Assembly: GCA_964641245.1 (NCBI GenBank)
Contig: CAZXML010000001.1
Coordinates: forward strand, 229,460-293,459
Length of the DNA stretch: 64,000 bases
From: an uncultured Gammaproteobacteria bacterium
GTDB taxonomy: Bacteria; Patescibacteriota; Patescibacteriia; Magasanikbacterales; GWA2-37-8
Reading direction: 5' to 3'
Numbering within the stretch: position 1 is the stretch's first letter; each line of letters opens with the position of its first letter. The position numbers and the translations under genes were made by a program. Shown one piece after another: positions 3,590 through 60,845 of this stretch. The notes below the pieces were generated by a model. The model was not told the DNA's origin. It saw only the letters and a list, made by a program, of their open reading frames with translations, and searched no databases.

Positions 3590-3751
3590 TTTGTCATTGC
3601 GACCCGTCAAGCGGGGAAGCAATCCTATCCACAGCTCACTCACTCTCTCCCCTACAAGGGGAGAGATAAAGAGAGGGGTTTATCGTTAAAATGTTAGCTT
3701 AACAACAACCAAAACCCCCTCTACTGTTCTCCCCCTTATAGGGGGAGAAAC
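3590..3751. repeat. Composite of repeat-element fragments (family B end, GC-hairpin fragment, two family C GGGGAGAG hairpins).
   Basis: The region contains tgtcattgcgac...gcaatcc and caagcggggaa. It also contains ctctctcccctacaaggggagag...gaggggtttatcg and cccctctactgttctcccccttatagggggagaaacc, which match pieces found at 36272, 32251 and 47041. Confidence 0.6.
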
Positions 3752-4540
3752 CTACTTCAAAAAACCTATATACCATTGTAAAATCCGCTCTCCCCACAAC
3801 ATAGCTACAAACGTACCAAGCGCGAGGTACGTTCCAAACGGAATGGCGCTGGAAAGATGCTTTTTGCGGGATGCCAGGAGTAATAAGCCGACAAAAGCTC
3901 CGACTACATACGCGATAAATAAAGCCACCAGCGTTACCGGCCAGCCCAACCAAATGCCCATCATGACACCAAGTCTAACATCTCCTCCTCCTATCCATTT
4001 TCCGCTGGAAATGACGTATTGTAAAAAGAAAAATCCTCCGGCGATTAGCGCGCCGATTAGCATTGATAACAAGCTATGTCCCAAGAAAATATTAAAAAAT
4101 AATCCGGCCAGAGCGCCAAACCAAATTACCTGGGGTAAAATTTCCTGATACAAATAATCGTAGATAAAAATTACAATGAGCAAGGATACAAAGGTAAAAT
4201 CCCGCAAAAAAAGCGCAGGCTCAACTGCCCCGCTGTTTAAATTTTTCCAGGCCACAAGCACAAAAATTAAGGCCGTGCCAAACTCTACAAAAGAAAAGTG
4301 TTTGGGAATTGCCGCTTTACATGTTCGGCATTTCCCCCATAACACTAAATAACTCAAAACCGGAATATTTTCGTACCAGGTAAGCTGACGCCGGCAGGCG
4401 GGGCACATACTGCGGCCGTTAACAATTTTAAAATTTTCGTGAGCGCGCCAAATCCAGGAGTTTAAAAAACTGCCCAGCGCGAGGCCGAGGAAAAAAATTA
4501 TAAAGTAAAAAAATTGCCCGATATCGTCCAAGTAATTCAT
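3752..4540 (-). CDS. pilD: Type IV prepilin peptidase (A24 family, PilD-like).
   Basis: 262 aa polytopic membrane protein with an N-terminal CPxC...CxxC zinc motif (MCPACRR...CRTC) and a conserved A24 layout. It lies adjacent to the pilin gene. Confidence 0.8.
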   Translation of the reverse strand: MNYLDDIGQFFYFIIFFLGLALGSFLNSWIWRAHENFKIVNGRSMCPACRRQLTWYENIPVLSYLVLWGKCRTCKAAIPKHFSFVEFGTALIFVLVAWKNLNSGAVEPALFLRDFTFVSLLIVIFIYDYLYQEILPQVIWFGALAGLFFNIFLGHSLLSMLIGALIAGGFFFLQYVISSGKWIGGGDVRLGVMMGIWLGWPVTLVALFIAYVVGAFVGLLLLASRKKHLSSAIPFGTYLALGTFVAMLWGERILQWYIGFLK

Positions 4541-4571
4541 ACGGACTAATTATATCATAATCAATAAAATC

Positions 4572-4604
4572 CACAACAAAAAACCCATCTTGCGAAGGGT
4601 TTTT
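4572..4604 (-). terminator. Intrinsic terminator downstream of the pilin gene.
   Basis: On the minus strand the hairpin aaacccttcgcaagatgggttt is followed by a T-run, directly after the pilin stop. Confidence 0.55.
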
Positions 4605-4624
4605 TGTTTTAAACTAAGTTTAAA

Positions 4625-5065
4625 CTATTGTTGAGCTATACCGGATGGGCTAAGGGAAATTCCTCCGCTCAATCCGTTAACTGTTGTTTCTAAGTTAGCA
4701 GTTACGATGTAAGAACTGGAAGTTGCTAATGTGTAAACGTAAGATTGGGTTGCTAAAGGATCTGACGGGACTTGACCCATATACGGGCTGCCACATCCGA
4801 CGGTTGTAAAGCCAGAAGCGTTTAAACAAGCTTGGCCAGTGGCTCCCAATGTGACGCCAGCACCTGCCGGGTAGGCAGTTTGATCAGTATAGTAAAGTTC
4901 CAAAGCGGTTTGTAATTGTTTTAAGTCGGACAAACGGCGCGCATCGCGGGCTTTTTGTCTGGCGTTTCCTAAGGCTACTACAGCTAAGGTTGATAATAAA
5001 CCAATAATAGCTATAACCACCAACAATTCAATCAAAGTGAAACCTTTCTTGTTCATGTTTTTCAT
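4625..5065 (-). CDS. Type IV pilin (prepilin with class III signal peptide).
   Basis: N-terminus [32 protein letters not shown] is a canonical G|FTLIELLVV prepilin cleavage and hydrophobic segment. A GGAGGGGG RBS lies upstream. Confidence 0.85.
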
Positions 5066-5152
5066 AGTTTCACCCCCTCTCCATAATTAATTCTGACATC
5101 ATTTTGCATACTTGGATTACATTAGACACGTCGCCATCATTTCATCACTGTG

Positions 5153-5236
5153 GAGTATTAAGTATTAGGTAGTAAGTATTATGCGACAATTTCGACTTGT
5201 ACGCTTAATACATAATACTTGATACTTAATACTAAA
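5153..5236. repeat. Family D element: inverted arrays of the heptamers (AAGTATT)n ... (AATACTT)n.
   Basis: Sequence gagtattaagtattaggtagtaagtatt...cttaatacataatacttgatacttaatact. Near-identical elements lie at 20182-20270 and 50955-51031. Confidence 0.7.
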
Positions 5237-5263
5237 ATTGCGTTTCTATTATATCACATTAAA

Positions 5264-5662
5264 CTATTTTTTATGCAAGACCGCCCGAACTTTATCCACA
5301 ACCTCTGATGGTTTAAAGTGGGTTTTTAGTAAATAACCGGCGGCGCCTTCGTCCAACCCGCGCTTAACATCATCTTTTTGGCCAAGGTTAGTAAGTAAAA
5401 TTATAGGGATATTTTTTATGGATGCGTCCGCCTTGACCGCTTCTAAAACCGCAAATCCGTCTAATTTTGGCAAGAGAATATCCAGCAAAACGATATCGGG
5501 CCTCTTTTTTTTGATATCGCTCAACCCCTTTTCACCATTATTGGCCATACTTACTTTAAACCCCTCCATTTCAAATTTTTTCTGATAAATTTCCGCCAGG
5601 AAAACGTCGTCTTCCACAATTAAAACATGGGATTGATTGTCTGACATAATTAAAATTAGCAA
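5264..5662 (-). CDS. Stand-alone response-regulator receiver (CheY-like REC) protein.
   Basis: 132 aa with the acidic pocket (VEDD...DIVLLDILLP), conserved T/S (LLTN) and K (GAAGYLLK) of REC domains. It sits inside the pilus gene cluster (PilH-like position). Confidence 0.75.
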   Translation of the reverse strand: MLILIMSDNQSHVLIVEDDVFLAEIYQKKFEMEGFKVSMANNGEKGLSDIKKKRPDIVLLDILLPKLDGFAVLEAVKADASIKNIPIILLTNLGQKDDVKRGLDEGAAGYLLKTHFKPSEVVDKVRAVLHKK

Positions 5663-5712
5663 TTAACAATTAGCAATTAACAATTGTTGGTTGTTAATTG
5701 TTTTTTGTTCAT
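5663..5712. repeat. Family F hairpin element (caattaacaattg palindrome plus ttgttaattgttttttgtt).
   Basis: Tandem agcaattaacaatt units form a CAATTAACAA/TTGTTAATTG stem followed by T-runs. The same motif lies at 26402-26470. Confidence 0.55.
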
Positions 5713-5715
5713 TAT

Positions 5716-6867
5716 TTAAACAATATTCCGTAACGCCAAACCAATGGCCACGGACATGCGCGGCCCTATTTGGCGCAAAATCGGTTTCAACCCCTCCTGA
5801 TATACGACTCTGGCCCAAGAATCTCCTACATATGTTTTAATTTTAAATTTTTCTTGAATATACTTTGCCAGAAACGGCATCAAGGCCATTCCGCCGGTTA
5901 AAATAATTTTTTCGGGGCGCTTGCCTTCATTGCCGGTTTGACGCAAATATAATTCCAAACTGACTTCTACCTCCTTCATTATAGGATCTACCACCGGCAT
6001 TAAAATGTCCAGCCATTTTTGTTCGGTTAATATATTATTACTGGTCGCGGCCAGATAGTCAAATAAATCATGCTTAGCCTGCTCAACTAGATCGCGTTCA
6101 ACCCCTAAAATATTTTGTAAAACCTTGTCTATTTTATCGCCACCCGATTCTATGCTTTGATGAGTAATTGGCATGCCCTGGTCTATTATAAAAAAGTTTG
6201 TGCGTTCGGAACCGATGTCTATTATCATAGATAACGCCTGATCCCTGCCAACCAAACATCGAGACAAGGCCGTTGATTCGGGTTCCAACGCCTCTAAAGA
6301 CAATCCGGCGCGCTGGAAAATTTTGGAATAAAATTCTATGAGTTTATGCGGTACGGCATTTACCAAAACCCGCTGTGATTTATCTTCGGGCAAACCTTTT
6401 AACACCTGATAATCCAAGGCCATTTCTTCTAAAGGCATGGGCAATAATTTTTTTACTTCCGCTTTAACAATATGATCTAGTTCTTCTTTCTTTAATATAG
6501 GAAGCGTAACCACCGCGTGAAAAACAGATGAAACCGGCAGGCTGACAACCGCAGTTTTGGATATTATTCGAGACGATTTGCAAATCGCCTTAAGAGTGTT
6601 CGCGTATTTTTCTATTTGCGCCTCGTTGTCACCCTCCCCTTTTAGGGGAGGGACAGAGGGTGGGGTATTCGCGGAGTTTTGTTTCTCTAAAAGACCGGCG
6701 ATATTTTTTTCTTCATTGGCCGCAAGTTTATGGATATCCTGTTTGCCGGATGTTAAACCGTACGAAAACAAAACCGGCCTGTTTTTTTCCAGGCGTAATT
6801 CTACTAATTTTATTCCCCCGGACCCGATGTCTACTCCGAGAAAGGATTTTGGTTTATTCCAAAACAT
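5716..6867 (-). CDS. pilM: Type IV pilus assembly ATPase-fold protein PilM.
   Basis: N-terminus FLGVDIGSGGIKLVELR has an actin-like/PilM fold with acetate-kinase-like phosphate loops. It contains an in-frame ~45 nt repeat-derived insertion (NTPPSVPPLKGEGD). Confidence 0.75.
   Translation of the reverse strand: MFWNKPKSFLGVDIGSGGIKLVELRLEKNRPVLFSYGLTSGKQDIHKLAANEEKNIAGLLEKQNSANTPPSVPPLKGEGDNEAQIEKYANTLKAICKSSRIISKTAVVSLPVSSVFHAVVTLPILKKEELDHIVKAEVKKLLPMPLEEMALDYQVLKGLPEDKSQRVLVNAVPHKLIEFYSKIFQRAGLSLEALEPESTALSRCLVGRDQALSMIIDIGSERTNFFIIDQGMPITHQSIESGGDKIDKVLQNILGVERDLVEQAKHDLFDYLAATSNNILTEQKWLDILMPVVDPIMKEVEVSLELYLRQTGNEGKRPEKIILTGGMALMPFLAKYIQEKFKIKTYVGDSWARVVYQEGLKPILRQIGPRMSVAIGLALRNIV
6628..6675. 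repeat. Family C (GGGGAGRG hairpin) element copy lying in-frame inside pilM.
   Basis: ccctccccttttaggggagggacagagggtggggtattcgcgg aligns with 47050 (ctctccccttttaggggagagacagagagaggggtatcgcgg). Confidence 0.65.
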
Positions 6868-7009
6868 AGTAACCTTAATTTCTAATAAGTTAAGTATACC
6901 ATATATGGGACTATTTGATAACTGGGGATAAATGATGTAAACTAAAGAAATAATGAAATTAGAAAATAAAGAAATTTCTTAATTTCGCAATTTCTCAATT
7001 TCCGTTTCT

Positions 7010-8389: not shown

Positions 8390-8402
8390 AAAGATAAAAC
8401 AA

Positions 8403-11422: not shown

Positions 11423-11535
11423 TTGTCATCCTGAACGTAGTGAAGGATCTCTGTCCGTCGTTTTTTTGCAAACCAGACAGAGATTCTTCTCCGTCCCGCC
11501 TAGGCAGGCGGATCAGAATGACAATTGACGAAACC
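11423..11535. repeat. Family A TGTCAT-type palindromic element (MITE-like).
   Basis: ttgtcatcctgaacgtagtgaaggatctctgtc...gacagagattcttc...cagaatgacaa. Confidence 0.8.
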
Positions 11536-12096: not shown

Positions 12097-12164
12097 TGTC
12101 ATGCTGAACTTGTTTCAGCATCTACACACAAGACTAAAGATCCTGAAACAAGTTCAGGATGACA
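12097..12164. repeat. Family A' twin-hairpin element (TGTCATGCTGAA...TTCAGGATGACA).
   Basis: tgtcatgctgaacttgtttcagcatct...agatcctgaaacaagttcaggatgaca. A direct copy lies at 14725-14790 and a third at 34243-34304. Confidence 0.85.
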
Positions 12165-14718: not shown

Positions 14719-14724
14719 TTAATT

Positions 14725-14790
14725 GTCATGCTGAACTTGTTTCAGCATCTGCTTAAGAACGAAAGATCCTGAAACAAGTTCAGGATGACA
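14725..14790. repeat. Family A' element, direct copy of 12097-12164.
   Basis: tgtcatgctgaacttgtttcagcatct...agatcctgaaacaagttcaggatgaca. Confidence 0.85.
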
Positions 14791-14796
14791 TTGCGT

Positions 14797-16383
14797 ATGA
14801 GTACGATCTACCGTAAATACCGGCCTCAATTATTTAGTGATATTGTTGGGCAACAGCATATTATAAAAACGGTTATTAACGAAATAACTGCCGGTAAGAT
14901 AGCGCACGCCTATCTTTTTTGCGGTCCCCGCGGAACGGGGAAAACCACTTTGGCCAGATTGCTCGCCAAGTCCATAAATTGCGCAAACAGAAAAGAAAAA
15001 GACAGCGAGCCGTGCGGTACGTGTTCGTCGTGCGCGGAGGTTACAGACGGCCGCAATATAGATGTGATAGAAATAGACGCGGCGTCGCACACGGGCGTAG
15101 AAAATATGCGCGAAAATATTATAGAAAACGCGCAATTTAAACCCACCAAATCAAAATATAAAGTATTTATCATCGACGAAGTGCACATGCTTTCCACCGG
15201 CGCCTTTAACGCGTTACTTAAGACGCTGGAAGAACCGCCCGCCCACGTAATTTTTATTCTGGCCACTACCGAACAACAAAAACTACCGGCCACCATTATT
15301 TCCCGCTGTCAGCGTTTTAATTTCAAAAGAGTCGGCTATGAAGATATGATGAAACGTCTGGGCGAAATTTGTAAAAGTGAAAAAGTAAAAGTAGACAAAG
15401 AAGTTTTGGAACGCGTTATAAATAAAAGCGATGGCTGTATGCGCGACGCCGAAAGTTTGCTAGGGCAAGTATTAAGTTTGGATTTGAAGAGCATTAGCCC
15501 GGAAGACGCGGAAATGATTTTGCCCACCTCCGGCATTCAAACAGTGCTGGAGTTTATAAATTTTATTTTAGAGAAACAAACCGCGGAAGCCATAAAAATG
15601 ATTCAAAATCTGGTTTCAGACGGCGTGAACCTGGAACAATTTGCTTACGATACACTGGAGGCTCTGCGACTTCTTATGATTCTACAGGTTGATCCACAGG
15701 CCAAAAATATCAACACCGATTACAGCGATGAGGCTCTAAAATCACTCAAAAAAACCGGTCTTAAAATTTCCGCCCAACATTTGGTAAAAATGATTGAAGC
15801 GTTAATTATCCGACGTCGGGATATTAAGTCATCGCCAATGCCGCAATTGCCGTTGGAGCTGTTTGTGGTGGAGTTTACGTGCGCTCCTGACCGCCACTTC
15901 GACGACACACCGATTGTCATTCTGACGAAGGAAGAATCTATACCGATAAAAAAAAATAGTATAGATCCCTCGTCGGCTACGGCCTCGCTCGGGATGACAA
16001 ACAATACAATCACCCAAACCATAAAAGACACCATCTCCAACCTTACCCACAAGCAAATTAAAACCACTTTAGAGGACATAAAAGCAAAATGGAATGACGT
16101 TATCCGGGAAATTTCCAAGGAAAACCATTCCCTTAGTTTCATTTTAAAAATGAGCAATCTTTTGGCTGTAGACGATGATGGTCTTAAAATCTCCGTCCCC
16201 TACTCTTTCCACAAAGATAAGCTGGAAGAAAATAAAACCAAAAAAACCATAGAACAGACCCTGACGAACTTTTTTTCGGAACGCATATTTTTACAATGCG
16301 AGGTTGTAGAAAGCCGGGTACAAACAAATAACGATGACGACTTAAATAAATTGGCTGCGGACTTTGGAGGGAATGTTGTATGA
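14797..16383 (+). CDS. dnaX: DNA polymerase III subunit gamma/tau.
   Basis: MSTIYRKYRPQLFSDIVGQQHI is followed by the Walker A GPRGTGKTT, the zinc module CGTCSSC and the DEVHML box. The ATG at 14785 lies within the repeat (ggATGACA), so the second ATG at 14797 is preferred. Confidence 0.9.
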   Translation: MSTIYRKYRPQLFSDIVGQQHIIKTVINEITAGKIAHAYLFCGPRGTGKTTLARLLAKSINCANRKEKDSEPCGTCSSCAEVTDGRNIDVIEIDAASHTGVENMRENIIENAQFKPTKSKYKVFIIDEVHMLSTGAFNALLKTLEEPPAHVIFILATTEQQKLPATIISRCQRFNFKRVGYEDMMKRLGEICKSEKVKVDKEVLERVINKSDGCMRDAESLLGQVLSLDLKSISPEDAEMILPTSGIQTVLEFINFILEKQTAEAIKMIQNLVSDGVNLEQFAYDTLEALRLLMILQVDPQAKNINTDYSDEALKSLKKTGLKISAQHLVKMIEALIIRRRDIKSSPMPQLPLELFVVEFTCAPDRHFDDTPIVILTKEESIPIKKNSIDPSSATASLGMTNNTITQTIKDTISNLTHKQIKTTLEDIKAKWNDVIREISKENHSLSFILKMSNLLAVDDDGLKISVPYSFHKDKLEENKTKKTIEQTLTNFFSERIFLQCEVVESRVQTNNDDDLNKLAADFGGNVV

Positions 16384-17212: not shown

Positions 17213-17283
17213 TCCGAGGTGGTCTAATGGTAGGACAGCAGACTCTGAATCTGCTTATCTTGGTTCGAATCCAAGCCTCGGAA
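17213..17283 (+). tRNA. tRNA-Gln (anticodon CTG).
   Basis: Cloverleaf with acceptor tccgagg/cctcgga, anticodon stem gcaga/tctgc, loop ctCTGaa and T-arm cttgg-ttcgaat-ccaag. No CCA is encoded. Confidence 0.85.
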
Positions 17284-20181: not shown

Positions 20182-20270
20182 TAAGTATTAAGTATTAAGT
20201 ATTACGTATAAAGTATTATGAATCAAATATCGCTTTTACCTTAATACTTAATACATGATACTTGATACAA
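20182..20270. repeat. Family D heptamer inverted-array element.
   Basis: ctaagtattaagtattaagtattacgtataaagtatt...ccttaatacttaatacatgatacttgataca. Confidence 0.7.
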
Positions 20271-23395: not shown

Positions 23396-23518
23396 ATTAA
23401 GCTTTCTTTCTGCCTCCTCTATATCTTTGGCAATGGTCGCGCCGGTTTCTACCCGCTTTATCGCCTTTAAGTGTTCCTTTATTTTATCCTCTTCAGTACT
23501 GTTTGGAGAAATTTGTTA

Positions 23519-23624
23519 GGAACAGCCACTTAAGCGAGTTGGGATGTGTCATATGCCGGTACTTTACCCTGCTTCAGGAGCTTTACCGAGAAGCGCGGGG
23601 TGTTACCGATGTATCTCATCTTCT
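23519..23624. mobile_element. Solo left-end remnant (~106 bp) of the IS481-family element, inverted relative to the full copy at 36961.
   Basis: Its reverse complement matches 36961-37070 at ~93% identity, including the first 12 codons of the transposase (MTHPNSLKWLFL). No transposase body follows. Confidence 0.75.
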
Positions 23625-28311: not shown

Positions 28312-28357
28312 ATCTTGAAAATTTCTAATTATTAATTTCTAATAACCAGTGTCAAAT

Positions 28358-28460
28358 TGTCATCCTGAATGTAATGAAGGATCTCTGTCTCAATCGCCAA
28401 ACGGACAGAGATTCTTCGCTTCACTCAGAATGACAAATGACGTGTGACCTGAATGACAGT
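28358..28460. repeat. Family A TGTCAT-type element.
   Basis: ttgtcatcctgaatgtaatgaaggatctctgtctcaatcgccaaacggacagagattcttcgcttcactcagaatgacaa differs by 1 nt in the core from the copy at 60740. Confidence 0.85.
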
Positions 28461-28468
28461 TAAAAAAT

Positions 28469-29201: not shown

Positions 29202-29315
29202 TTGTCATCCTGAATGAAATGAAGGATCTCTGTCCGTTTAGCTGTCATTCCCATAACAATGGGAATCCAGACAATCATCGATTCGACTGGATTCCCGCTT
29301 TGGCGGGAATGACAA
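29202..29315. repeat. Family A half-element fused to a family E element (TGTCATTCCC...GGGAATGACAA).
   Basis: cttgtcatcctgaatgaaatgaaggatctctgtc is followed by tgtcattcccataacaatgggaatcc...ggattcccgctttggcgggaatgacaa. Confidence 0.75.
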
Positions 29316-29861: not shown

Positions 29862-29919
29862 TGTGTAAGGGATTCCTCCACTACGGTCGGAATGACAATG
29901 CTAAAGTGATGCGTAAAAT

Positions 29920-31113: not shown

Positions 31114-31223
31114 TTGTCATTCTGAGTGAAACGAAGAATCTCTGTCTGGTTGGCCAACGCGATACTGACAGATATCCTTCACGGAGTTTACACTGAACGC
31201 AGTGAATGTGTTCAGGATGACAA
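31114..31223. repeat. Family A-related TGTCAT element (divergent).
   Basis: ttgtcattctgagtgaaacgaagaatctctgtc...tgttcaggatgacaa. Confidence 0.7.
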
Positions 31224-32351: not shown

Positions 32352-32569
32352 ATTGACCTCGACCGAACAAATAAATTAAACAAAAAAACTTTCCTTGGCA
32401 GGAAAGAAAGTCGACCTTTATCTTTCCCCGTTGGGGCTAGATTTGGCACCTTATCCCGACTAAGTCGGGACAGGTTGTCGGCAGGTCTTAGGGCTAGTTC
32501 CCTCGCTGCACTCTTGATAACTATATCGTACCAGGTATTTCTTAATTATCAAAAAATACCTGGGGATAA

Positions 32570-34242: not shown

Positions 34243-34304
34243 TCATAGTTGTCATGCTGAATTTATTTCAGCATCTAATCGGTATAGATCCTGAAACAAG
34301 TTCA
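34243..34304. repeat. Family A' twin-hairpin element.
   Basis: tgtcatgctgaatttatttcagcatct...agatcctgaaacaagttcaggatgac. Confidence 0.8.
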
Positions 34305-34312
34305 GGATGACG

Positions 34313-34713: not shown

Positions 34714-34795
34714 TTGTCATCCTGAATGAAATGAAGGATCCCTGTCTCAATCGACAATGACGGACAGAGATTCTTCGCTTTGCTCAGAATGACAA
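34714..34795. repeat. Family A TGTCAT-type element.
   Basis: ttgtcatcctgaatgaaatgaaggatccctgtctcaatcgacaatgacggacagagattcttcgctttgctcagaatgacaa. Confidence 0.85.
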
Positions 34796-34808
34796 AGGAC
34801 AATTGATA

Positions 34809-35429
34809 TTATACCATGTCCGAACCCAATTGATCCTCAATCAACTTCTTAACTTCCACCAAATCTCCATCCGTTAAATCCGGAATTATTTTGATAAAAT
34901 TATTGTAAATAACTTTCATGTTAGCCACTTTAATATCTTGCTTATACTGCTGACTGATATCGGAGAGCAGGAGTTGAGTTTTGGAAGGGCTGGCGATATT
35001 TAAAATTTCCAGAACAAACTGCTGGCTTTTGGTTTGAATGGCGATGCCGCCAAAATTAAATAAACTTTGGGCGATACCTTTTTTTCTGACGACCACATCT
35101 TTTACATCCAAATAACTGACGGATGAAATAATTTCATCAAACCAGCCCAGCCGGTGAATATCCACCACCCGGTCGCTGGTGATAACCAAAACATTTACGT
35201 GGTTTAAAAACCAGGTGCGTAAAATTATATAAAGTCCAATAAACATTCCCAACCCGTAAACTATATTCCCCCACCAGCCATAGAAAAAAAGGCGGAACAT
35301 AAAAAAAGACGAGGCAAATAAAAATATCAGACCGAGTAAATACTTCCAGGCATAAGCCGCCACGTGGGGCGCGATTACGGAAATAATTTTTTCATCTTCT
35401 TTCAGGTGGATTTTTTTGGCAATGGACAT
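34809..35429 (-). CDS. Membrane protein with a bacterial PH-like domain (YdbS/YdbT-like).
   Basis: Two N-terminal TM helices are followed by a ~100-aa beta-rich domain, matching the bPH_2 architecture. Confidence 0.5.
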   Translation of the reverse strand: MSIAKKIHLKEDEKIISVIAPHVAAYAWKYLLGLIFLFASSFFMFRLFFYGWWGNIVYGLGMFIGLYIILRTWFLNHVNVLVITSDRVVDIHRLGWFDEIISSVSYLDVKDVVVRKKGIAQSLFNFGGIAIQTKSQQFVLEILNIASPSKTQLLLSDISQQYKQDIKVANMKVIYNNFIKIIPDLTDGDLVEVKKLIEDQLGSDMV

Positions 35430-35472
35430 AAGTAAATTCTAATTTCTCAATTTCCTAATTTCTAATCTCGAA

Positions 35473-35577
35473 TTGTCATCCTGAACGGAGTGAAGGATCT
35501 CTGTCCGTATAGTTTTCACCAACCAGACAGAGATTCTTCGCTTTGCTCAGAATGACAGTTACGTACGGGATGACAAT
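35473..35577. repeat. Family A TGTCAT-type element plus an extra terminal fragment.
   Basis: ttgtcatcctgaacggagtgaaggatctctgtc...gacagagattcttcgctttgctcagaatgacag, followed by ttacgtacgggatgacaatgc. It supplies the last 6 codons and the stop of the Mur ligase gene. Confidence 0.8.
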
Positions 35578-36896
35578 GCGGATAACACTTCTCTGGCAAC
35601 ACGGCGGTCATCCCAAACAATTTTCTTTCCCCCGGCCACCGCAATATACGGCTCCGTGCCTTTGGCGGTAATAACCACCACGTCTCCGGCTTGAGCCAAG
35701 GAAACGGCTTTAATTATTGCCTGACGACGGTCCACAATCACAAACAAGTCTGCATTGTCTTTTTTTCCGGACGAACGCGCGCCAACCGCCAGCATTTCGG
35801 CAATTTGTTCCGGATCTTCATCGTAACAGTTCACATCTGTAATTATAACATAATCGGTTAATTTACCTGCTATTTGCCCCATAGATTCTCTTTTGCTTTT
35901 GTCGCGACCGCCGCCGTCGGACCCAACCACCGCAATAATTTTGTGGTCATGACCAACCATTTCACGCAAACTTTTAAACAATTCGGTTAAACTTACGGGT
36001 TCGTGCGCATAATCTACTATCACCTTAAAATTTTGTCCTTCATCAATTAATTCCATTCTGCCCTCCACTAATTTTACGCTCGCCAACCCTTCGGCAATTT
36101 TCTCATCGGAAATTTTCTGCGCCCTGCCCACCGCAATCGCAGCCAGCGCGTTGTAAACGTTAAACCGGCCGATTATATTTAATCTGAATTTTTTGCCACC
36201 GACTGTAAAATCAGAACCATTCTGATCGGAAACGATATTTTCTCCGCTTAATAATTTTGTCGCGCTGTTTTTGTCATTGCGAGGAGCTAAAAGCGACGTG
36301 GCAATCCCATTGTTGGCACTACCAGTACTGTGGGATTGCTTCGCTTTGCTCGCAATGACAGAAAACGCCCACTTCTCCACCGCCGGAAAACTCAAAAAAT
36401 AATCCGCATGCTCATCATCCGTATTAGCAACAATTGTTTTTGCTTTCGCAAAAATTTTGGCTTTGTCTTTTTTTAGATTATCAAATCCACCGTGGCGTTC
36501 CGAATGTTCGGTTCCTAAATTAGTAAACACCGCCGTATGGTAATTCAATCCGATATGCCGGTACTGCAAAATTCCTTCCGAAGATGTTTCCACCACCGCG
36601 TATTTGCACCCGGCTTTTACCATTTGTTTTAATAAACTCTGAATTTTCCCTCGCCCTAGCATGGTCATTTTTTTATCGTTCAGCCAGCGCTTATTGGCCA
36701 CCTGAAATTCTACGGTGCTTAGTAGCCCAACTTTATTTCCTCCCGCTTCTAAAACAGACGCAATAAGCCGGCAAGTGGTAGACTTGCCCTTGGTGCCGGT
36801 TACCCCAATCACAGTTAATTTTCGGGCCGGCCGGCCATACCACCAATAAGCGGACCAGGCCAATAAAAAATGAAGGATTTTCTTAAAAAAAGACAT
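35559..36896 (-). CDS. Mur ligase family protein (MurE-like UDP-N-acetylmuramoyl-tripeptide ligase).
   Basis: VIGVTGTKGKSTT (P-loop), DYAHEPVSL and AKGTEPY motifs are present. It carries a ~30-aa in-frame repeat-encoded insertion (SVIASKAKQSHSTGSANNGIATSLLAPRND). Confidence 0.75.
   Translation of the reverse strand: MSFFKKILHFLLAWSAYWWYGRPARKLTVIGVTGTKGKSTTCRLIASVLEAGGNKVGLLSTVEFQVANKRWLNDKKMTMLGRGKIQSLLKQMVKAGCKYAVVETSSEGILQYRHIGLNYHTAVFTNLGTEHSERHGGFDNLKKDKAKIFAKAKTIVANTDDEHADYFLSFPAVEKWAFSVIASKAKQSHSTGSANNGIATSLLAPRNDKNSATKLLSGENIVSDQNGSDFTVGGKKFRLNIIGRFNVYNALAAIAVGRAQKISDEKIAEGLASVKLVEGRMELIDEGQNFKVIVDYAHEPVSLTELFKSLREMVGHDHKIIAVVGSDGGGRDKSKRESMGQIAGKLTDYVIITDVNCYDEDPEQIAEMLAVGARSSGKKDNADLFVIVDRRQAIIKAVSLAQAGDVVVITAKGTEPYIAVAGGKKIVWDDRRVAREVLSALSSRT
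36272..36360. repeat. Family B element (GTCATTGCGAGGAG...GCTCGCAATGACA) lying in-frame inside the Mur ligase gene.
   Basis: tgtcattgcgaggagctaaaagcgacgtggcaatcccattgttggcactaccagtactgtgggattgcttcgctttgctcgcaatgaca. Intergenic copies lie at 52370 and 53868. Confidence 0.85.
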
Positions 36897-36960
36897 AAAA
36901 TTTATGGCTGATACCTAAAAATTATACCAAAAAAATGGCAAAATGACAAGCTGCATTATG

Positions 36961-38130
36961 TAGAAGATGAGATACATCGGTAACACTCCACGCTTCTCGG
37001 CAAAGCTCCTGAAGCAGGGTAAAGTACCGACATATGACACATCCCAACTCTCTTAAATGGCTGTTCCTGACCAAGGAAAAGCTACCACAGGTTTTTTTCA
37101 GAGACAACCAAAAGAAATTGCTTGCCCATCATGATCGTTGGCGGCGAACCGCAGGCCTCCTTAAATTATCCAAGGGCGCGAAGAGCCGCCTCGAGTGGAT
37201 GATATTTTATGAAACGAAAGGTGAGCGGAATGCTCGTTTAACTGCCAGGCATTTCGGCATCGTTCCCAAGACTTTTTATCAATGGCATAATCGCTTTGAT
37301 GAAGGCGACCTTAAAACGCTCGAAGAGCGTTCACGCGCGCCCGTTAGCAAACGGGTGCGGGAGTACACACCCCTCCAGTATGTCCGGGTAATTAAACTTC
37401 GCAAGGAACATATCCGGTGGGGCAAGATGAAGCTTTTAAAACTGTATCAAGATGACTTTCCAAAAGATGCAACAATTACCAGTTGGAAGGTTCAATGTAT
37501 TATTGAAGTATCCGGCATCTACTACCACCCTCAAAAACAAGCTAGAATCAACCGCAAACGCATATTGTCGGTGAAGCGGAAGAAGATTACTGACCTCGCC
37601 AAAAAACCACGGCAGGGTTTTTTGGTATGTCTCGACACAATCGTGCGTTATGTTGCCGGACAGAAGCGCTACATTTTGACGGCGATTGACCAATACTCAA
37701 AAATTACCTTTGGCCGAATGTACACGACACATAGCTCGGCAAACGCGAGGGACTTTCTTCACCGCCTCCACTATCTGCTTGACGGAAAGATTGAAAACAT
37801 TCAAACTGACAACGGCAGTGAATTCAAATTGCATTTTGATACGGCCTTAACGAAGTTGAATATTCCACACTACCATTCTCGGGTAAGGACACCAAAAGAT
37901 AACGCGGTGAACGAACGGTTCAATCGTACCCTAGATGAAGAATTCCTGGCTATGGGCAATCTGATGGCAGATACCGTTCTTTTTAACCAACGTCTGACTG
38001 AGTGGCTGGTAGAATACAACTTCAAACGTCCGCATCAATCTCTGGGGTATCTACCACCAATTAACTTTCATTTTAAATATCATAAAGTGTTACCGATGTA
38101 CCCGTCTAGTACAACTGATTGACACATCGC
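36961..38130 (+). mobile_element. IS481-family insertion sequence (single transposase ORF).
   Basis: Transposase 37034-38122 (362 aa) has an N-terminal HTH and an rve/DDE core (DNGSEF...RPHQSLGY). An imperfect terminal repeat core TACATCGGTAACACT lies at both ends. The left end is defined by comparison with the remnant at 23519-23624. The right boundary is approximate. Confidence 0.8.
37034..38122 (+). CDS. IS481-family DDE transposase.
   Basis: HTH, integrase core D...D...E region, DNGSEFK and KRPHQSLGYLPP are present. Confidence 0.85.
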   Translation: MTHPNSLKWLFLTKEKLPQVFFRDNQKKLLAHHDRWRRTAGLLKLSKGAKSRLEWMIFYETKGERNARLTARHFGIVPKTFYQWHNRFDEGDLKTLEERSRAPVSKRVREYTPLQYVRVIKLRKEHIRWGKMKLLKLYQDDFPKDATITSWKVQCIIEVSGIYYHPQKQARINRKRILSVKRKKITDLAKKPRQGFLVCLDTIVRYVAGQKRYILTAIDQYSKITFGRMYTTHSSANARDFLHRLHYLLDGKIENIQTDNGSEFKLHFDTALTKLNIPHYHSRVRTPKDNAVNERFNRTLDEEFLAMGNLMADTVLFNQRLTEWLVEYNFKRPHQSLGYLPPINFHFKYHKVLPMYPSSTTD

Positions 38131-44148: not shown

Positions 44149-44859
44149 TTATTTAACGGCTATGGCGATAAGATTCCGTCCGCCTTTTTTATCTGTCCAG
44201 TTTGTTCTCTCGCTGTAGTCAATTTTTTTTATTTTGAATCCGGCTTCTGTTAATAACCCGCTTAATTCTTCTTTGGGAAAATGATGATAATATCTTTCGG
44301 CTAATTGCTCGCCTTCAGGAGTTTTCCAGGGAACCAGAAAATCATTTTCTCCGATTTGCTTCCAACTTTTGTCTATTTTACTTTTTGCCCAATCGCTTTC
44401 CAGATTCCAAACCGTAATAATTAATTTTCCGGACGGTTTTAATTGTTTATAAACATCTTTTAATAATTCCAAACGGCTTTGTTTGTCCGGCAAATGATGA
44501 AACGAAGCAATCATGAAAACCAGATCAAAAAAATCTTTTGAGAAGCTCTTTTTTTTCTTGGCGGTGGAAAAAAATTTTATCCAACCTTCTTTTATTTCTT
44601 TTTGGTAATTTTTTTTCGCGATTTTTAATAATTCATCGCTTTGGTCCGTGCCAATATAATTCACCCGCTTCTCTTTTAACAATAAAACCAACCGGCCGTT
44701 TCCACAGCCCCAATCCAAAATATTCTGCCCGTTTTTTATAAACGGTTTAAACATTTCCAGCTCGCCGGCGTTATTTCTGGTGCTGTCAAAATACCTGGCT
44801 ATACGGTTGTAATCTTCGCGGGTTTTGTGTATAATCTTAGTTGTATCTTTTCTTAACAT
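44149..44859 (-). CDS. Class I SAM-dependent methyltransferase.
   Basis: Motif I ILDWGCGNGRLV in a Rossmann layout. Confidence 0.7.
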   Translation of the reverse strand: MLRKDTTKIIHKTREDYNRIARYFDSTRNNAGELEMFKPFIKNGQNILDWGCGNGRLVLLLKEKRVNYIGTDQSDELLKIAKKNYQKEIKEGWIKFFSTAKKKKSFSKDFFDLVFMIASFHHLPDKQSRLELLKDVYKQLKPSGKLIITVWNLESDWAKSKIDKSWKQIGENDFLVPWKTPEGEQLAERYYHHFPKEELSGLLTEAGFKIKKIDYSERTNWTDKKGGRNLIAIAVK

Positions 44860-46628
44860 GTATGTCTGTTACAGAGGAAATGATTAAATATCTGCTGGCC
44901 AATCCCCCCAAAACGGAGGATGCTTTTGGCGTGGTTTTAAGAAAAATTTTGCGTCAGACCAAAAACGCGCAGGCCAACATTCCCACCAAATCGTCGCTGA
45001 TTAAATCATATCATAAATTGTTAAAACAGCACAAGATTAAAAAGAGTCCGGCGCTGGAAAAAACCTTAATGAAGCGGGCGGTGCGCACTTTGTCCGGCGT
45101 CAGCATTATTACCGTGCTCACCAAACCATTCCCCTGTCCCGGAAAGTGCATTTATTGCCCCACCGAAGCGCGCATGCCTAAAAGTTACATTTCCGATGAA
45201 CCGGCCGCGGCGCGCGCCTTAAGTTTGGCGTTTGATCCTTACCAACAGGTTGTTCAACGCTTTAAGGCTTTAGAAAATAACGGCCACCCCACCGATAAAG
45301 TGGAGTTGATTATTAAGGGTGGAACATGGAATTCGTATCCGATTAAATACCAATACTGGTTTGTTGCCAGATGTTTTGAAGCGTGCAATAATGTAAAATT
45401 TAATGCAGCCAAGCCAAGGGGCGCGCGTTCGGCAGTAGACGAGAAATTTTCTTTGGATAAATTGCGCCAATTGAGTTTCAAAATTCAAAAAGCAAATGAA
45501 AACGGCAAACACCGCCTGATTGGTTTAACCATAGAAACCCGCCCCGATTTTATAAACGCCGGCACTATCGCGGCTATGCGGGAAATGGGTACCACCAGAA
45601 TAGAACTAGGCGTACAAAATACCAATGAAAAAATATTAAAATTAACAAAACGCGGCCATGGCACGGCCGAAGTAAAACGCGCCACCAAAATGCTAAAAGA
45701 TTACGGTTTTAAAGTTGACTACCATTTAATGCCCCAATTGCCCGGAGCGACTCCGGCGACGGATTTAAAAATGATGTTAAAAGTTTTTGACGACCCGGAT
45801 TACCGTCCGGATATGATTAAGGTGTATCCGTGCACGGTGGTGAAAACTTCCGAACTTTACGACTGGCTAAAACGGGGTGAATACAAAACGTATTCAGACC
45901 GCCATTTGATAAACATGCTGAAAAAATTTAAAGTAAAAGTTCCGCGCTACGTGCGCATTTCCCGGTTAATCCGCGATATTCCCGGTCATCATATTCAAGC
46001 CGGAAATAAAATGACAAACTTGCGCCAGGTAATCCAGGAGGAGTTAAAAAAAGAAGGATTAAAATGCAGTTGTCTGCGCTGTCGCGAGGTCGGACATCAA
46101 CACATCGAGTCAAATGTCAAAAGTCAAAAGTCAAAAGTCAAAATGTTTGTAGACAAATACGAAGCCAACGGCGGGACGGAATATTTCTTAAGTTTCGAAG
46201 ATACCAAACGCGACGTTGTTTACGCGTTTTGCCGATTGCGTGTTCTCAAGCCTGTCATCCTGAGCAAAGCGAAGGATCTCTCTCTTTCAAACAAAAGGGA
46301 TTCTTCGGTCACTTCACTCCCTCAGAATGACAACCACAACCTCCCCAACGAAGGAATTAGCGCGGCCGAATTAGTCAAAATGGGCTACCCCGCTTTTATC
46401 CGCGAACTCCATACTTACGGCCAACTTATAAACATTGGGAAAAAAGCCAAAGGGGCTAGCCAGCATATTGGCATGGGCACAAAATTAATTGTTGAAGCGG
46501 AAAAAATCTGTAGAAAAAACAAGGCCTACAAATTAGCCGTAATTTCCGGAGTGGGTGTACGCGAATATTACAAAAAATTTGGCTACAAACTGGAAAACAC
46601 CTATATGGTAAAGACTTTGAAAAAGTAG
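44841..46628 (+). CDS. elp3: Elp3-family radical-SAM/GNAT protein (tRNA uridine-34 modification homologue).
   Basis: CPGKCIYCP radical-SAM cluster motif, LIGLTIETRPDF, and a C-terminal GNAT region (HIGMGTKLIVEAEKIC). A start at 44862 (MSVTEEM) is also possible. It carries two in-frame repeat insertions. Confidence 0.8.
   Translation: MYLFLTCMSVTEEMIKYLLANPPKTEDAFGVVLRKILRQTKNAQANIPTKSSLIKSYHKLLKQHKIKKSPALEKTLMKRAVRTLSGVSIITVLTKPFPCPGKCIYCPTEARMPKSYISDEPAAARALSLAFDPYQQVVQRFKALENNGHPTDKVELIIKGGTWNSYPIKYQYWFVARCFEACNNVKFNAAKPRGARSAVDEKFSLDKLRQLSFKIQKANENGKHRLIGLTIETRPDFINAGTIAAMREMGTTRIELGVQNTNEKILKLTKRGHGTAEVKRATKMLKDYGFKVDYHLMPQLPGATPATDLKMMLKVFDDPDYRPDMIKVYPCTVVKTSELYDWLKRGEYKTYSDRHLINMLKKFKVKVPRYVRISRLIRDIPGHHIQAGNKMTNLRQVIQEELKKEGLKCSCLRCREVGHQHIESNVKSQKSKVKMFVDKYEANGGTEYFLSFEDTKRDVVYAFCRLRVLKPVILSKAKDLSLSNKRDSSVTSLPQNDNHNLPNEGISAAELVKMGYPAFIRELHTYGQLINIGKKAKGASQHIGMGTKLIVEAEKICRKNKAYKLAVISGVGVREYYKKFGYKLENTYMVKTLKK
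46109..46143 (+). repeat. Tandem heptanucleotide repeat (GTCAAAT then GTCAAAA x4) inside the elp3 coding sequence.
   Basis: gtcaaat gtcaaaa gtcaaaa gtcaaaa gtcaaaa, encoding SNVKSQKSKVK. Confidence 0.85.
46264..46332. repeat. Family A TGTCAT-type element inserted in-frame in elp3.
   Basis: tgtcatcctgagcaaagcgaaggatctctctc...ccctcagaatgacaa, encoding VILSKAKDLSLSNKRDSSVTSLPQND. Confidence 0.8.
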
Positions 46629-47040: not shown

Positions 47041-47150
47041 TACCCAATCGCTCTCTCCCCTTTTAGGGGAGAGACAGAGAGAGGGGTATCGCGGATGTCG
47101 AATTACAAATACCCCCACCCTGCCCTCCCCCTAAATGGGGGAGGAACGAT
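47041..47150. repeat. Family C element (two GGGGAG hairpins).
   Basis: ctctctccccttttaggggagagacagagagaggggtatcgcg...ccctccccctaaatgggggagg. Confidence 0.7.
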
Positions 47151-50954: not shown

Positions 50955-51031
50955 GTATAAAGTATTAAGTATTAGGTATTAAGTATTTAACAAATATTCC
51001 CATAATACTTGATACATAATACTTAATACTT
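50955..51031. repeat. Family D heptamer inverted-array element.
   Basis: gtataaagtattaagtattaggtattaagtatt...cataatacttgatacataatacttaatactt. Confidence 0.7.
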
Positions 51032-52369: not shown

Positions 52370-52456
52370 TGTCATTGCGAGGAGTCGTAGCGACGTGGCA
52401 ATCCCATAGTCAGTACTACTAGTATAGTGGGATTGCTTCGCTTTGCTCGCAATGAC
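52370..52456. repeat. Family B element (intergenic, ftsA-ftsZ).
   Basis: tgtcattgcgaggagtcgtagcgacgtggcaatcccatagtcagtactactagtatagtgggattgcttcgctttgctcgcaatgaca. Confidence 0.85.
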
Positions 52457-52586
52457 AGATAAAGTTCCATTGAACACATTTTGTATTCAGCATCCTCTTA
52501 AACAAAACAACGGAGTGGTCTCCGTTGTATAGTTTATAGATAATAGTTTTTACTGTCAAGAAAACAAGTGCACTCTTTGTGTACAA

Positions 52587-53844: not shown

Positions 53845-53955
53845 TGTCATGCCTAGCGAGGTCTTACTGTCATTGCGAGGAGCCGGAGCGACGCGGCAAT
53901 CCCACTGTCGGGACTACCAGTACTTTGGGTTTGCTTCGCTTTGCTCGCAATGACA
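53845..53955. repeat. Family B element with an extra partial TGTCAT end.
   Basis: tgtcatgcctagcgag is followed by tgtcattgcgaggagccggagcgacgcggcaatcccactgtcgggactaccagtactttgggtttgcttcgctttgctcgcaatgaca. Confidence 0.85.
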
Positions 53956-54749: not shown

Positions 54750-54780
54750 GATTGTGAATTTAGTATTTAGTATTTAGGAT

Positions 54781-56718: not shown

Positions 56719-56758
56719 ACTTTTTTAGAAATTAGAAATTAGAAATTAGAAATTTATG

Positions 56759-57136
56759 TCACTTTGCTTTATCAAGCGGATTTGTTCCGCGGCGAACCTC
56801 GTAACCATCGGCTTTACCATCGCCATCGGTGTCTGCTTTAAGCGGATTCGTTTTAAAAACAAATACTTCCTGACTATCTATTAAACCATCCTCATCGGTA
56901 TCGGCAGATGTAACGCTGGTTTGATATTTTGCTTCTTCGCTATCCGGTATGCCATCCAAGTCCTTGTCTGTAGCCGTTAATTTTTTTAAAGCGACATTAA
57001 ATTCTTGTTCTCTGACTGAAGTACTTGGCGCTACCGGCGCCATTGATTTTTTAATTATAACTCTATAAACCAAAACACCCGCTCCCGTCAGAGCGACAAT
57101 GATGAAAAAAAATATTATTTTTTTACTTGTTGACAT
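56759..57136 (-). CDS. Small membrane-anchored TSP3-like repeat protein.
   Basis: N-terminal TM, then DKDLDGIPDSEE, DTDEDGLIDSQE and DTDGDGKADGYE. Confidence 0.6.
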   Translation of the reverse strand: MSTSKKIIFFFIIVALTGAGVLVYRVIIKKSMAPVAPSTSVREQEFNVALKKLTATDKDLDGIPDSEEAKYQTSVTSADTDEDGLIDSQEVFVFKTNPLKADTDGDGKADGYEVRRGTNPLDKAK

Positions 57137-57142
57137 ACTTAA

Positions 57143-60100: not shown

Positions 60101-60712
60101 ATTTAAATTTAATTTCCCGTCTCCGCAAACACCGGATTCCATTGTGGAAATTTCCTCATTATAATTACAGACACCGCTACTGTCGCTGATTTTAAAAATG
60201 GTGGTGCTAATAAAACTGGCCACAAAACTTTCGTCATTTGCCGGTGAAATTCCGTCATCTTCAAATTTGGCGCGCACAGTATAAACTCCGGGCGTGGTGG
60301 AAACTATATACCGGTAGGCGTAAGAATCTTTGGAGCAGGCAAAACTGAAGCGTCTATTCGCAACGCTCCAGCCGGTTTCCGGACTGTGCAGAACGCAGGT
60401 TTCATTAGCCGCGGTATCCGGCGGTTTGCAATCATTATCACTTAAACAAAACCGATTAGTGCTAATAACGCAGGTACCCGCCGGGGACAGTTGATTTATC
60501 GGGTCGGTAGGGAAAGCGACACCCGCGGCATTCCCTAATAATGACCATGATGGCCAGACACTTAAAGTCTGTCCGGTTAAATAGGTTCCTTCTTTTAGGG
60601 TGGGAGCGGTGGCGGCTACAACTTTTTGGTATACAAAAAAACTAAGTGTCGCCACCATTACCAAAGAAAGAAAAATTAATTTTTTTGTTTTCATACAACT
60701 ATTATACCACAA
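57143..60712 (-). CDS. Giant secreted surface protein with Myxococcus-type Cys-rich repeats, a LamG/ConA-like domain and a C-terminal FN3 domain.
   Basis: Signal peptide; at least six CxxCGDG/CGNG...GE.CD repeats (for example CGDGKLNLNKGEQCDPPG, CGNGALEAGETCDDGTF); LamG signature LDEVKIYNRALSASEV; FN3 region (PQNLVVTGVGSGSVQMAWNAP...YRYKVTAVNANGES). Confidence 0.75.
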   Translation of the reverse strand: MWYNSCMKTKKLIFLSLVMVATLSFFVYQKVVAATAPTLKEGTYLTGQTLSVWPSWSLLGNAAGVAFPTDPINQLSPAGTCVISTNRFCLSDNDCKPPDTAANETCVLHSPETGWSVANRRFSFACSKDSYAYRYIVSTTPGVYTVRAKFEDDGISPANDESFVASFISTTIFKISDSSGVCNYNEEISTMESGVCGDGKLNLNKGEQCDPPGRIEYEAGCSSAVPPLKNLKVCNSSCKWGPPSTTLCSKFSHCGNGALEAGETCDDGTFLNGKYNHCNISCTGPVDSPTPGRCGDGHLQEAYEVCDPVTPGVEKYSLISRNNSCSWDCQNWGPYCGDSIIQTQYGETCDGSQTCSVDGNPGTKVCGSNCLKKDRDAVAWWRFENDLVGVYRTDDSSVNGNNAICDNKARACPVVGTGKYGHGFEFGSSFGRRYLIAKSSPSFSLVATSSLTVEAWIYPTEDERALYPYQRIVEKEGPFGFRSYDLEFNASTTLHNIRFNLWNNNLQTAVVDSNSSIATNTWTHVVGTYSRNGNSHITKIYVNGVLENTNTVSSDTAIMAVGTGDLVIGKSAPVGSGNYFFGSLDEVKIYNRALSASEVQNNYQSGWFCAATSTLTPVLPVGSCGNNIVDAGETCDQGLVNNGHVCTPAYGKPCSYCSSDCQNTIDVQPGQYCGDGVIQSPEKCEVFEENIFSSASTTGRTEVLKTPGRNGYQELACSAESKDPRTIKKGAKSCADCSVGVVRNCVTCGVVSDGVEVHGNVVNVLENALWDSFSGTGLTPDPLFAKKITGGGSLGLAIGSNTFASLVGLDIKNDTSMDFMSYTLRKPDNLGSRDVTFDYMKAIIASDPICSADANPEKKYQMYVNYDWARPLNFRVVAEPQPWQYDLVLSPVISSTLRAHDLRIVTSWVGSGDFYSGVLNPFIVNPEIEGPSYCYLNVCEASQKNYATGINYYSTPNSEAYGIWYHGFTATPGQTDSEAFTIDTSAMSGNTYAFYVRSPSYPIRTFKNTVKLKVEIYLPDTDTNPYHFGTPAKTYFFQSASPSDNQNARYWQVFNINKPATTLSLHDIIDVNAIITDPEHFQYVTLTPALSAPQNLVVTGVGSGSVQMAWNAPASNGGSAITSYKVYRKTYLFFDFYSLVYTTLNGSSTSFNNTGLTNGTRYRYKVTAVNANGESAASNEVEAVPNREI

Positions 60713-60720
60713 AGTATTAC

Positions 60721-60845
60721 ATTGTCATCCCGAGCGAGTGGTTGTCATCCTGAATGTAATGAAGGATCTCTGTCTCAATCGCCGAACGGACAGAGATTCT
60801 TCGCTTCACTCAGAATGACAAGTGGTGTGCGGTCAGAATGACAAA
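60721..60845. repeat. Composite family A element with nested partial ends.
   Basis: ttgtcatcccgagcgagtgg is followed by ttgtcatcctgaatgtaatgaaggatctctgtctcaatcgccgaacggacagagattcttcgcttcactcagaatgacaa, then gtggtgtgcggtcagaatgacaa. Confidence 0.85.

Follow-up and report, generated by a model that had tools for sequence, protein, structure and literature searches.

TGTC-tagged hairpin repeats in a Magasanikbacteria-like genome: a dense and divergent population, probably of the CGTC/TGTC-tagged REP superfamily

The window analysed here, a 64-kb stretch of contig CAZXML010000001.1, carries a dense population of short hairpin repeats that begin with the tag TGTC and lie between and within genes such as dnaX, metK and those for a Mur ligase and a radical-SAM protein. 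After curation, about 34 hairpin units were recognised, arranged as 15 inverted doublets, four single units and five truncated ends, and together the TGTC-tagged elements make up approximately 1.44 kb, or 2.3% of the window. A structural scan of both strands for GTCAT, then a hairpin with a stem of 5 bp or more starting AT, then a C gave 38 raw matches, 32 of which passed a flanking-base filter; 50 first-order Markov simulations gave 3.6 matches on average and never more than 7. The original prediction, made from the sequence alone, that repeats ending in TGTCAT...ATGACA are dense in this region is thus upheld, and its figure of at least 18 copies is exceeded. The subfamilies that it named (A, A', B and E) were recovered, corresponding to families D1-D6 and D13 of a repeat-family search of the window, and a further type with TCT and CCC arms was found in dnaX at 15915-15999. 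The elements are as follows, in window coordinates, with the strand given for single and truncated units.

3592-3625, + strand: single unit, B-like (TGTCATTGCGACCCGTCAAGCGGGGAAGCAATCC)
11424-11523: A doublet, CCT arm left and TCT arm with a long loop right, divergent genes on either side
12097-12164: A' doublet with 8-bp stems ATGCTGAA/ATCCTGAA, a stop codon 6 nt before and a start codon 4 nt after
14724-14790: A' doublet, stop codon of a TraG-like gene 5 nt before, dnaX start abutting
15915-15999: doublet with TCT arm and CCC arm, in dnaX, with an A9 run (15948-15956) between the arms and then out-of-frame TAGs
28358-28435: A doublet, missing at the orthologous site of five relatives, near-twin of 60743-60820
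28441-28458, - strand: truncated unit end (..CCTGAATGACAG)
29203-29234, + strand: single A unit adjoining an E doublet (composite)
29243-29314: E doublet, ATTCCC-N-GGGAAT stems, dRS3/NTS-like, stop codon 7 nt before
29871-29897, - strand: single unit (TTGTCATTCCGACCGTAGTGGAGGAATCC), missing in relative L082
30846-30877, + strand: single A unit
31115-31222: A doublet, reversed, TCT arm left and CCT arm with a 36-nt loop insert, metK stop codon 10 nt away, kept in relative L087
34250-34312: A' doublet immediately past the stop codon of an ftsB-like gene, its L095 orthologue holding a nested E doublet
34715-34794: A doublet, stop codon 14 nt before, missing in L089
35474-35557: A doublet, Mur-ligase stop codon 1 nt before, missing in L089 and L090
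35563-35575, - strand: truncated end (CGTACGGGATGACAA), overlapping the final codons of the Mur ligase
36272-36360: B doublet in the Mur-ligase open reading frame (ORF), in-frame, within Mur_ligase_M, missing in L089 and L090
46253-46332: degenerate A doublet in the radical-SAM ORF (44841-46628)
52370-52457: B doublet
53845-53866, + strand: truncated unit start (TTGTCATGCCTAGCGAGG..)
53868-53955: B doublet
60723-60742, + strand: truncated unit start (TTGTCATCCCGAGCGAGTGG), outer piece of a composite
60743-60820: A doublet, near-identical to 28358-28435
60826-60843, - strand: truncated unit end (..GGTCAGAATGACAA), outer piece of the same composite

The conserved entity is the single hairpin unit rather than the doublet. 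Each unit is 24-37 nt long. After (T/C)TGTC and AT come three stem bases that vary, a core and the complements of those three bases, and the unit closes with AT and C(T/C)(C/A). The TGTC tag, the AT..AT and the 3' C are invariant in all window subfamilies, with a single CGTC (34288-34311) as the only departure from the tag amongst genuine units, and in every unit of every subfamily the first two stem pairs are A-T then T-A. The 3' tail reads CTC, CCC or CCA, the first two being commoner than the third. Doublets are mostly head-to-head and range from 63 to 108 nt, and those of types A, A' and B are all heterodimers. Since this length exceeds the gap allowed, the exact pattern TGTCAT-N10-40-ATGACA has no match in the window. 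The shared termini had been taken for the inverted ends of elements resembling miniature inverted-repeat transposable elements (MITEs). They do mark one superfamily with a conserved terminus, but TGTCAT/ATGACA are not transposon terminal inverted repeats (TIRs). Each consists of the TGTC tag at the 5' side joined to AT, the opening two bases of the stem, and belongs to an independent hairpin that is also found singly.

In units of types A' and E, eight Watson-Crick pairs form the stem and the loop has 4-5 nt (for example ATGCTGAA-CTTGT-TTCAGCAT and ATTCCCGC-CAAA-GCGGGAAT), and as single-stranded DNA (ssDNA) they fold much more stably than shuffled sequences (z = -4.2 and -6.0). In types A, B and the dnaX type, a 5-bp stem is followed by G-A opposite G-A, two more pairs and a 3-base loop, as in ATCCT-GA-AT-GAA-AT-GA-AGGAT, and such stems reach nine stacked positions only when the G.A pairs are counted. 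Covariation was assessed in all TGTCAT-N17-ATC strings from the DNA gathered, 143 distinct units chosen by their outer letters only. The inner stem positions were occupied by CG/TA/GC in 70/26/11, by TA/CG in 90/17 and by GC/AT in 68/31 units, and stem pairing lay above all of 1000 column shuffles. At the two G.A positions, G.A or A.G was found in 81 and 87 sequences, G-C/A-T taking their place in the 8-bp type, and the loop consensus was G-N-A. This set was picked on the GTC and 3' C letters and so lends no independent support to their invariance. The arms of a doublet are unlike each other (ATCCT..AGGAT versus ATTCT..AGAAT) but each is compensated internally, and selection therefore acts on the hairpin of each arm and not on pairing between arms. 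Entire doublets can also fold into hairpins of -25 to -50 kcal/mol.

Most elements are located 0-14 nt past a stop codon between co-directional genes, as was first noticed, and the intragenic copies that had also been reported number three, in the dnaX, Mur-ligase and radical-SAM ORFs. Composite or nested arrangements are indeed present at 29203-29314 and 60723-60843. The two copies said to differ by 1 nt do so (28357-28436 versus 60742-60821, 1/80 nt) and have been recently duplicated. The heterodimers are oriented almost uniformly on the + strand (6/7 for A, 3/3 for A' and 3/3 for B). Since this orientation is unchanged for three elements that lie among + strand genes, and since the GC skew has a single sign over the whole window, the bias tracks the chromosome or replication strand and not transcription. 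Non-orthologous doublets in syntenic relatives show the same orientation bias.

In the Mur ligase, the copy in the middle domain forms an in-frame insert of 29-30 codons, read as ..VIASKAKQSH..IATSLLAPRNDK.., and together with the in-frame doublet of the radical-SAM protein (46253-46332) it recalls the RPE insertions in Rickettsia proteins. Within dnaX (ORF 14785-16383, + strand), the arms of the doublet stand on both sides of the A9 run, and directly behind the run there is a TAG in each of the -1 and +1 frames. A run of A8-A9 at the corresponding position after domain III, with an out-of-frame stop right behind it and without the repeat, is seen in many CPR (candidate phyla radiation) dnaX genes (L001, L003, L009, L015, L022 and others). 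The A9 run resembles a slippage site of the Thermus type that would give a short DnaX form, in this case with hairpins on its flanks, and on a side reading of our analysis the dnaX copy may have been recruited around this site.

Rfam searches of the window, at gathering thresholds and at E <= 1, returned only tRNAs, a SAM riboswitch and chance miRNA matches; the elements are not a known RNA family. No terminator-like site in the window coincides with any unit, and the units are without a T-tract. At or near some ATGACA ends there are outward-facing -35-like hexamers followed by correctly spaced -10-like boxes, namely at 28355-28328 (-), 29208-29181 (-), 29892-29919 (+) and 34789-34817 (+), and from their sequence these ends may serve as outward promoters.

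The DnaX protein has its closest GTDB relatives in Patescibacteria, with 55% identity to a Magasanikiibacteriota metagenome-assembled genome, and MetK falls into a 90% cluster with Candidatus Magasanikbacteria proteins. Because of these matches the host is placed, on its protein sequences, as a Magasanikbacteria-like CPR bacterium, and a Bacteroidetes origin is rejected. A metagenome scan gave 26 syntenic groundwater loci with 75-88% nucleotide identity to the window, and comparison with these relatives, which had been proposed at the outset, revealed presence/absence polymorphism at orthologous sites, with the majority of the doublets missing from the relatives. The site at 28312-28468 is empty in five syntenic loci and that at 29862-29919 is empty in L082, while the doublets at 34715 and 35474 and the intragenic Mur-ligase copy are missing in L089 and/or L090. 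In L095, the orthologue of the A' doublet at 34250-34312 has near-identical arms and a spacer holding a 77-nt segment with an E doublet, and in L097 an E doublet is nested in an A doublet. No target-site duplication or direct repeat was visible at the borders of any of the 15 doublets in the window. Units occur at 0.5 per kb in the window, at 0.19 per kb in the syntenic relatives and at 0-0.19 per kb near dnaX in 80 other genomes. Several distant CPR and deltaproteobacterial loci also have isolated units built in this way.

A literature search with sequence words returned primer matches only. The CGTC-tagged REP (repetitive extragenic palindromic) superfamily was defined by Di Nocera et al. 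2013 as hairpins with the tag CGTC, often TGTC, with TGTC or CCTC permitted as alternatives, whose first stem pairs are A-T and T-A and which end in a 3-nt tail of consensus CCA (PMC3733652). In these families the stems are 8-9 bp with loops of 4-5 nt, the repeats are predominantly head-to-head dimers, often heterodimers, and copies also occur within genes, replication genes included; Neisseria dRS3 and Rickettsia RPE are members (PMC3733652). The window elements share with CGTC-1 to -4, including Rickettsia RPE-4 and RPE-6, the tag, the A-T/T-A pairs, a short 3' tail, the predominance of head-to-head dimers and heterodimers, the position after ORFs and in-frame copies in replication and other genes. 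They differ in that only A' and E have an 8-9-bp stem with a 4-5-nt loop, in that CCA is the less common tail, and in that CPR is not amongst the five phyla listed for those families (PMC3733652). The same study found "no dedicated transposase", and none of the CGTC units flanked a RAYT or IS200 gene (PMC3733652).

A candidate enzyme is suggested by the Neisseria NTS (CGTCATTCCCGCGMAVGCGGGAATCYRG), which contains dRS3 and was characterised by Chenal et al. 2025 (PMC11893778). SsnA, a 94-aa nuclease made up of a single GIY-YIG domain, binds and cuts the NTS only as ssDNA and on one strand only, and it does not bind RNA (PMC11893778). Binding depends critically on the C after the palindrome and cutting on the three bases before it, the cut being made a few nucleotides upstream (PMC11893778). 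Genes of the ssn family are flanked by such motifs in many phyla, and for Ssn proteins cutting has been demonstrated and transposition has not (PMC11893778). The invariant letters of the window units, GTC and the 3' C, are the NTS positions critical for cutting and binding by SsnA. As in the NTS, a palindrome starting with AT is immediately preceded by the GTC tag and immediately followed by the C. The stems and tail of family E (ATTCCC-N-GGGAAT-CC) come close to the NTS core, and the behaviour as a repeat of hundreds of copies clustering around genes is also alike. In contrast to the NTS, the A and B units, which are the majority in the window, combine a 5-bp stem with tandem G.A pairs and a G-N-A triloop, nearly all units are in tight inverted doublets, the host is a Patescibacteria member and the 64 kb contains no ssn.

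No transposase-like partner is encoded in the window, as the original prediction had stated. No GIY-YIG or Y1 ORF is present in the window or in any syntenic locus; for the window, regular expressions and tblastn aimed at GIY-YIG and Pfam on ten ORFs all came out negative. A homologue search with an Ssn family consensus as query returned 94-97-aa PF01541 proteins with up to 83% identity, several of them named Patescibacteria, Moraniibacteriota or Doudnabacteria. One CPR protein was 56% identical (E = 4e-28) to that of a Neisseria gonorrhoeae locus encoding a 94-aa protein with canonical NTS flanks. In three independent CPR genomes the ssn homologue lies in the arrangement TGTCAT-hairpin, ORF, hairpin-ATGACA, with hairpins of the 8-bp type, and in dozens of homologues the over-extended N- or C-termini are translations of such hairpins (MSFPRKRES, CHSRESGNPE, SGLPDQVGQ). 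On a Planktothrix plasmid, the ssn homologue is flanked by A-type units, the commonest type in the window, and 29 consecutive nucleotides of one flanking unit (TGTCATTCTGAGTGAAACGAAGAATCTCT) are the same as in the arm at 31115 of the window. The Spirosoma homologue has a similar GA-type unit on its flanks, as an ATCCC-GA-GGAAC-GA-GGGAT doublet. The view that the repeats depend on something acting in trans thus stands in so far as they are non-autonomous here, but the literature and these loci point to a GIY-YIG ssDNA endonuclease (Ssn) and not to the transposase or recombinase that had been envisaged.

Other small nucleases and transposases were met in the same searches. A second small GIY-YIG clade (84-86 aa), which is very common in CPR, was rejected as the partner since its ends differ (ATCCCGTACGAAA...TTTCGTACGGGAT); it was seen at L201 3985-4275 and at L202 3975-4275, in L202 between the halves of a permease gene, and the window fragment ACGTACGGGATGACAA (35560-35577) resembles its right end. 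At L112 19229-19876, 9 kb from an ssn cassette, a CPR Y1_Tnp (IS200-like) gene is enclosed by a 27-nt TIR (CCAATATACAGCGGTTCAACCCCTGTA) as a TIRYT-type element. The Bacteroidetes RAYT subclass 2.6 was also discarded as a match, its listed hairpins being unrelated to the window units.

We propose that the window elements are probably members of the CGTC/TGTC-tagged REP superfamily in a Magasanikbacteria-like CPR bacterium, with an Ssn-family nuclease as their partner. Each unit would fold when its DNA becomes single-stranded, be it as lagging-strand template, during repair or in competence and type IV pilus uptake. An Ssn-family nuclease encoded elsewhere in the genome would bind the stem and the following C and then nick a few nucleotides 5' of the GTC tag. 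Doublets would be the ORF-less counterparts of the hairpin-ssn-hairpin cassettes and would be gained and lost whole, probably via repair or recombination begun by the nicks. We infer that the host genome carries an ssn gene, that its product would cut these particular units, and that nicking by Ssn, not another enzyme, would drive their spread. We read the chromosome-strand orientation, the lack of a T-tract or Rfam family and the G-N-A and G.A loops as signs of an element acting at the level of ssDNA rather than RNA.

A number of findings weigh against this proposal. The published SRM search pattern (Chenal 2025), HGTCWYN(0-2)YYVSBRHN(0-5)WNVSBRGN(0-2)RNCYNB, has no match on either strand of the window (0.12 expected). 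GIY-YIG ORFs are lacking from the window, from 15 kb of an overlapping JGI contig and from approximately 150 kb of syntenic relatives, and the ssn homologue search gave no match on the 304,216-bp source contig. Exact protein look-up yielded only one 31.8-kb JGI contig, which ends 3.4 kb past the window; the gene at the right end of the window runs off it. In 729 kb of viral-contig DNA with A-type units (86 stretches) there was no ssn gene, and these contigs showed no recurrent neighbour gene, only phage structural genes. The A/B-type geometry falls outside the 8-9-bp stem and 4-5-nt loop of the CGTC families, and with standard DNA parameters the A/B-type units are no more stable than shuffles (z ~0). 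Tandem sheared G.A pairs and G-N-A triloops are well known as compact motifs of DNA hairpins, and the units score like shuffles because nearest-neighbour parameters give these motifs no credit, a caveat that stays with this result. A doublet also offers only one cuttable unit per strand, and since a GIY-YIG nuclease forms no covalent intermediate, nicking alone fails to explain copying. To our knowledge, Ssn-dependent mobility has been demonstrated by nobody.

Mobilisation of the doublets as ssDNA by a single-copy HUH/Y1 (IS200-like) transposase reading the hairpin and a 5' guide tetranucleotide, as in the REPIN-RAYT systems of Pseudomonas and Enterobacteria, would account for the same anatomy of tagged hairpins in inverted doublets with conserved spacing. 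On paper the two work alike: the inverted doublet is what replicates, one enzyme gene lying between its own repeats acts in trans, and the system persists vertically. The chromosome-strand orientation bias would fit lagging-strand ssDNA chemistry, and Y1_Tnp genes do occur in CPR genomes (L112). We nevertheless consider this improbable, since the tag here is TGTC and not GT[AG]G (GTAG in REPIN-RAYT), the window has no Y1 gene, the L112 gene has its own TIR and not TGTCAT hairpins, the hairpins listed for subclass 2.6 are unrelated, RAYT and IS200 genes with CGTC units on their flanks were not found (PMC3733652) and no RAYT is linked to window-type units. The enzymology also differs, a covalent HUH/Y1 transposase standing against a hydrolytic GIY-YIG nuclease. 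Still harder to sustain is the classical MITE explanation, by which the elements are deletion derivatives of a DDE-transposase insertion sequence (IS) that have TIRs starting TGTCAT and move by cut-and-paste in double-stranded DNA. The TG...CA ends, the size of 63-108 bp, the AT-rich and intergenic character, the presence/absence polymorphism and an rve-type IS in the window would all suit it, and Neisseria Correia elements and other MITEs are likewise small, abundant, intergenic, sometimes co-transcribed and strain-polymorphic. However, Correia elements and MITEs have true TIRs and TA target-site duplications and descend from DDE IS elements, and nothing of this kind was seen for the window elements, none of the 15 doublets having a visible target-site duplication. 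Single and half units are common, the conserved feature is the covarying hairpin within an arm and not a match between arms, and across phyla the same termini adjoin a nuclease gene and not a DDE gene. The ends of the window IS are unrelated. The MITE and transposase interpretation with which this work began was only partly right.

It is also rather unlikely that the elements are maintained by selection on expression, as operon stem-loops that stabilise the upstream mRNA, attenuate read-through or provide outward promoters. Their position shortly past stop codons in co-directional operons (mostly 0-14 nt) agrees with such a role, as do the doublet folds of -25 to -50 kcal/mol, the greater stability (by 3-8 kcal/mol) of A doublets on the strand from which most are transcribed, and the -35-like hexamers with plausible -10 boxes at the ATGACA ends. 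Yet the orientation is the same among + and - strand genes (three elements lie among + strand genes), T-tracts and Rfam matches are lacking, some copies are in-frame within genes, and relatives manage without elements at the same sites. SsnA, moreover, does not bind RNA (PMC11893778). A role at the RNA level could be a secondary effect.

The window holds further repeats and genes. A second, unrelated repeat family consists of the hairpin CTCTCCCCT-N4-AGGGGAGAG followed by a mirror purine tract AGAGAGGGGT (3637-3679, 3715-3750, 6624-6666 and 47045-47087), two copies facing each other as a doublet at 3637-3750. A third family, palindromic and intergenic, is built of AGTATTAAGTATTA words with arms of about 30 nt and a spacer of 20-25 nt (5154-5236, 20191-20265 and 50961-51026). 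Several gene starts are closely preceded by arrays of AATTAGAAATT-like words (28320-28345, 35436-35470, 6951-7001 and 56727-56765), which are conserved in relatives (also L082 and L106) and may be a promoter or leader motif. The sole IS, at about 36951-38125, has an rve-type integrase (ORF 37034-38122) and, as had been said of it, ends unlike TGTCAT; an inverted copy of approximately 120 nt, covering its left end and first codons, is located at 23503-23620. Other features are type IV pilus and prepilin peptidase genes at 3752-6867, a SAM riboswitch at 32415-32523 (-) upstream of metK at 31233-32198 (-), and tRNA genes at 17213, 27329, 32948 and 33029.

The class of repeat was already described in 2013 and 2025, and what is found here is a divergent and unusually dense member in a CPR genome. 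A dense repeat population in a Patescibacteria genome is thereby assigned to a defined system of CGTC/TGTC-tagged hairpins and Ssn nucleases. The published SRM pattern misses a large and cosmopolitan variant with a 5-bp stem, tandem G.A pairs and a G-N-A triloop, which occurs in contigs from CPR, cyanobacteria and Bacteroidota and in many metagenomic and viral ones. A bolder proposal, which we hold only tentatively and think doubtful, is that the doublets are the non-autonomous form of an unrecognised mobile element whose sole protein would be a ~95-aa GIY-YIG ssDNA nickase (Ssn) and whose spread would be coupled to replication. Such an element would explain the near-uniform orientation on one replichore and the insertion into the spacers of other doublets, as well as the in-frame copies in dnaX and the Mur ligase of a streamlined CPR genome. 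If true, it would be a third route to the proliferation of hairpin repeats, beside HUH transposases and DDE MITEs. The syntenic groundwater populations are a natural data set for the gain and loss of units and could be used to test mobilisation driven by Ssn. CPR bacteria have tiny genomes and rely on DNA uptake, and a self-marking system of an ssDNA nuclease and its sites could affect both how imported DNA is handled and the plasticity of these genomes.

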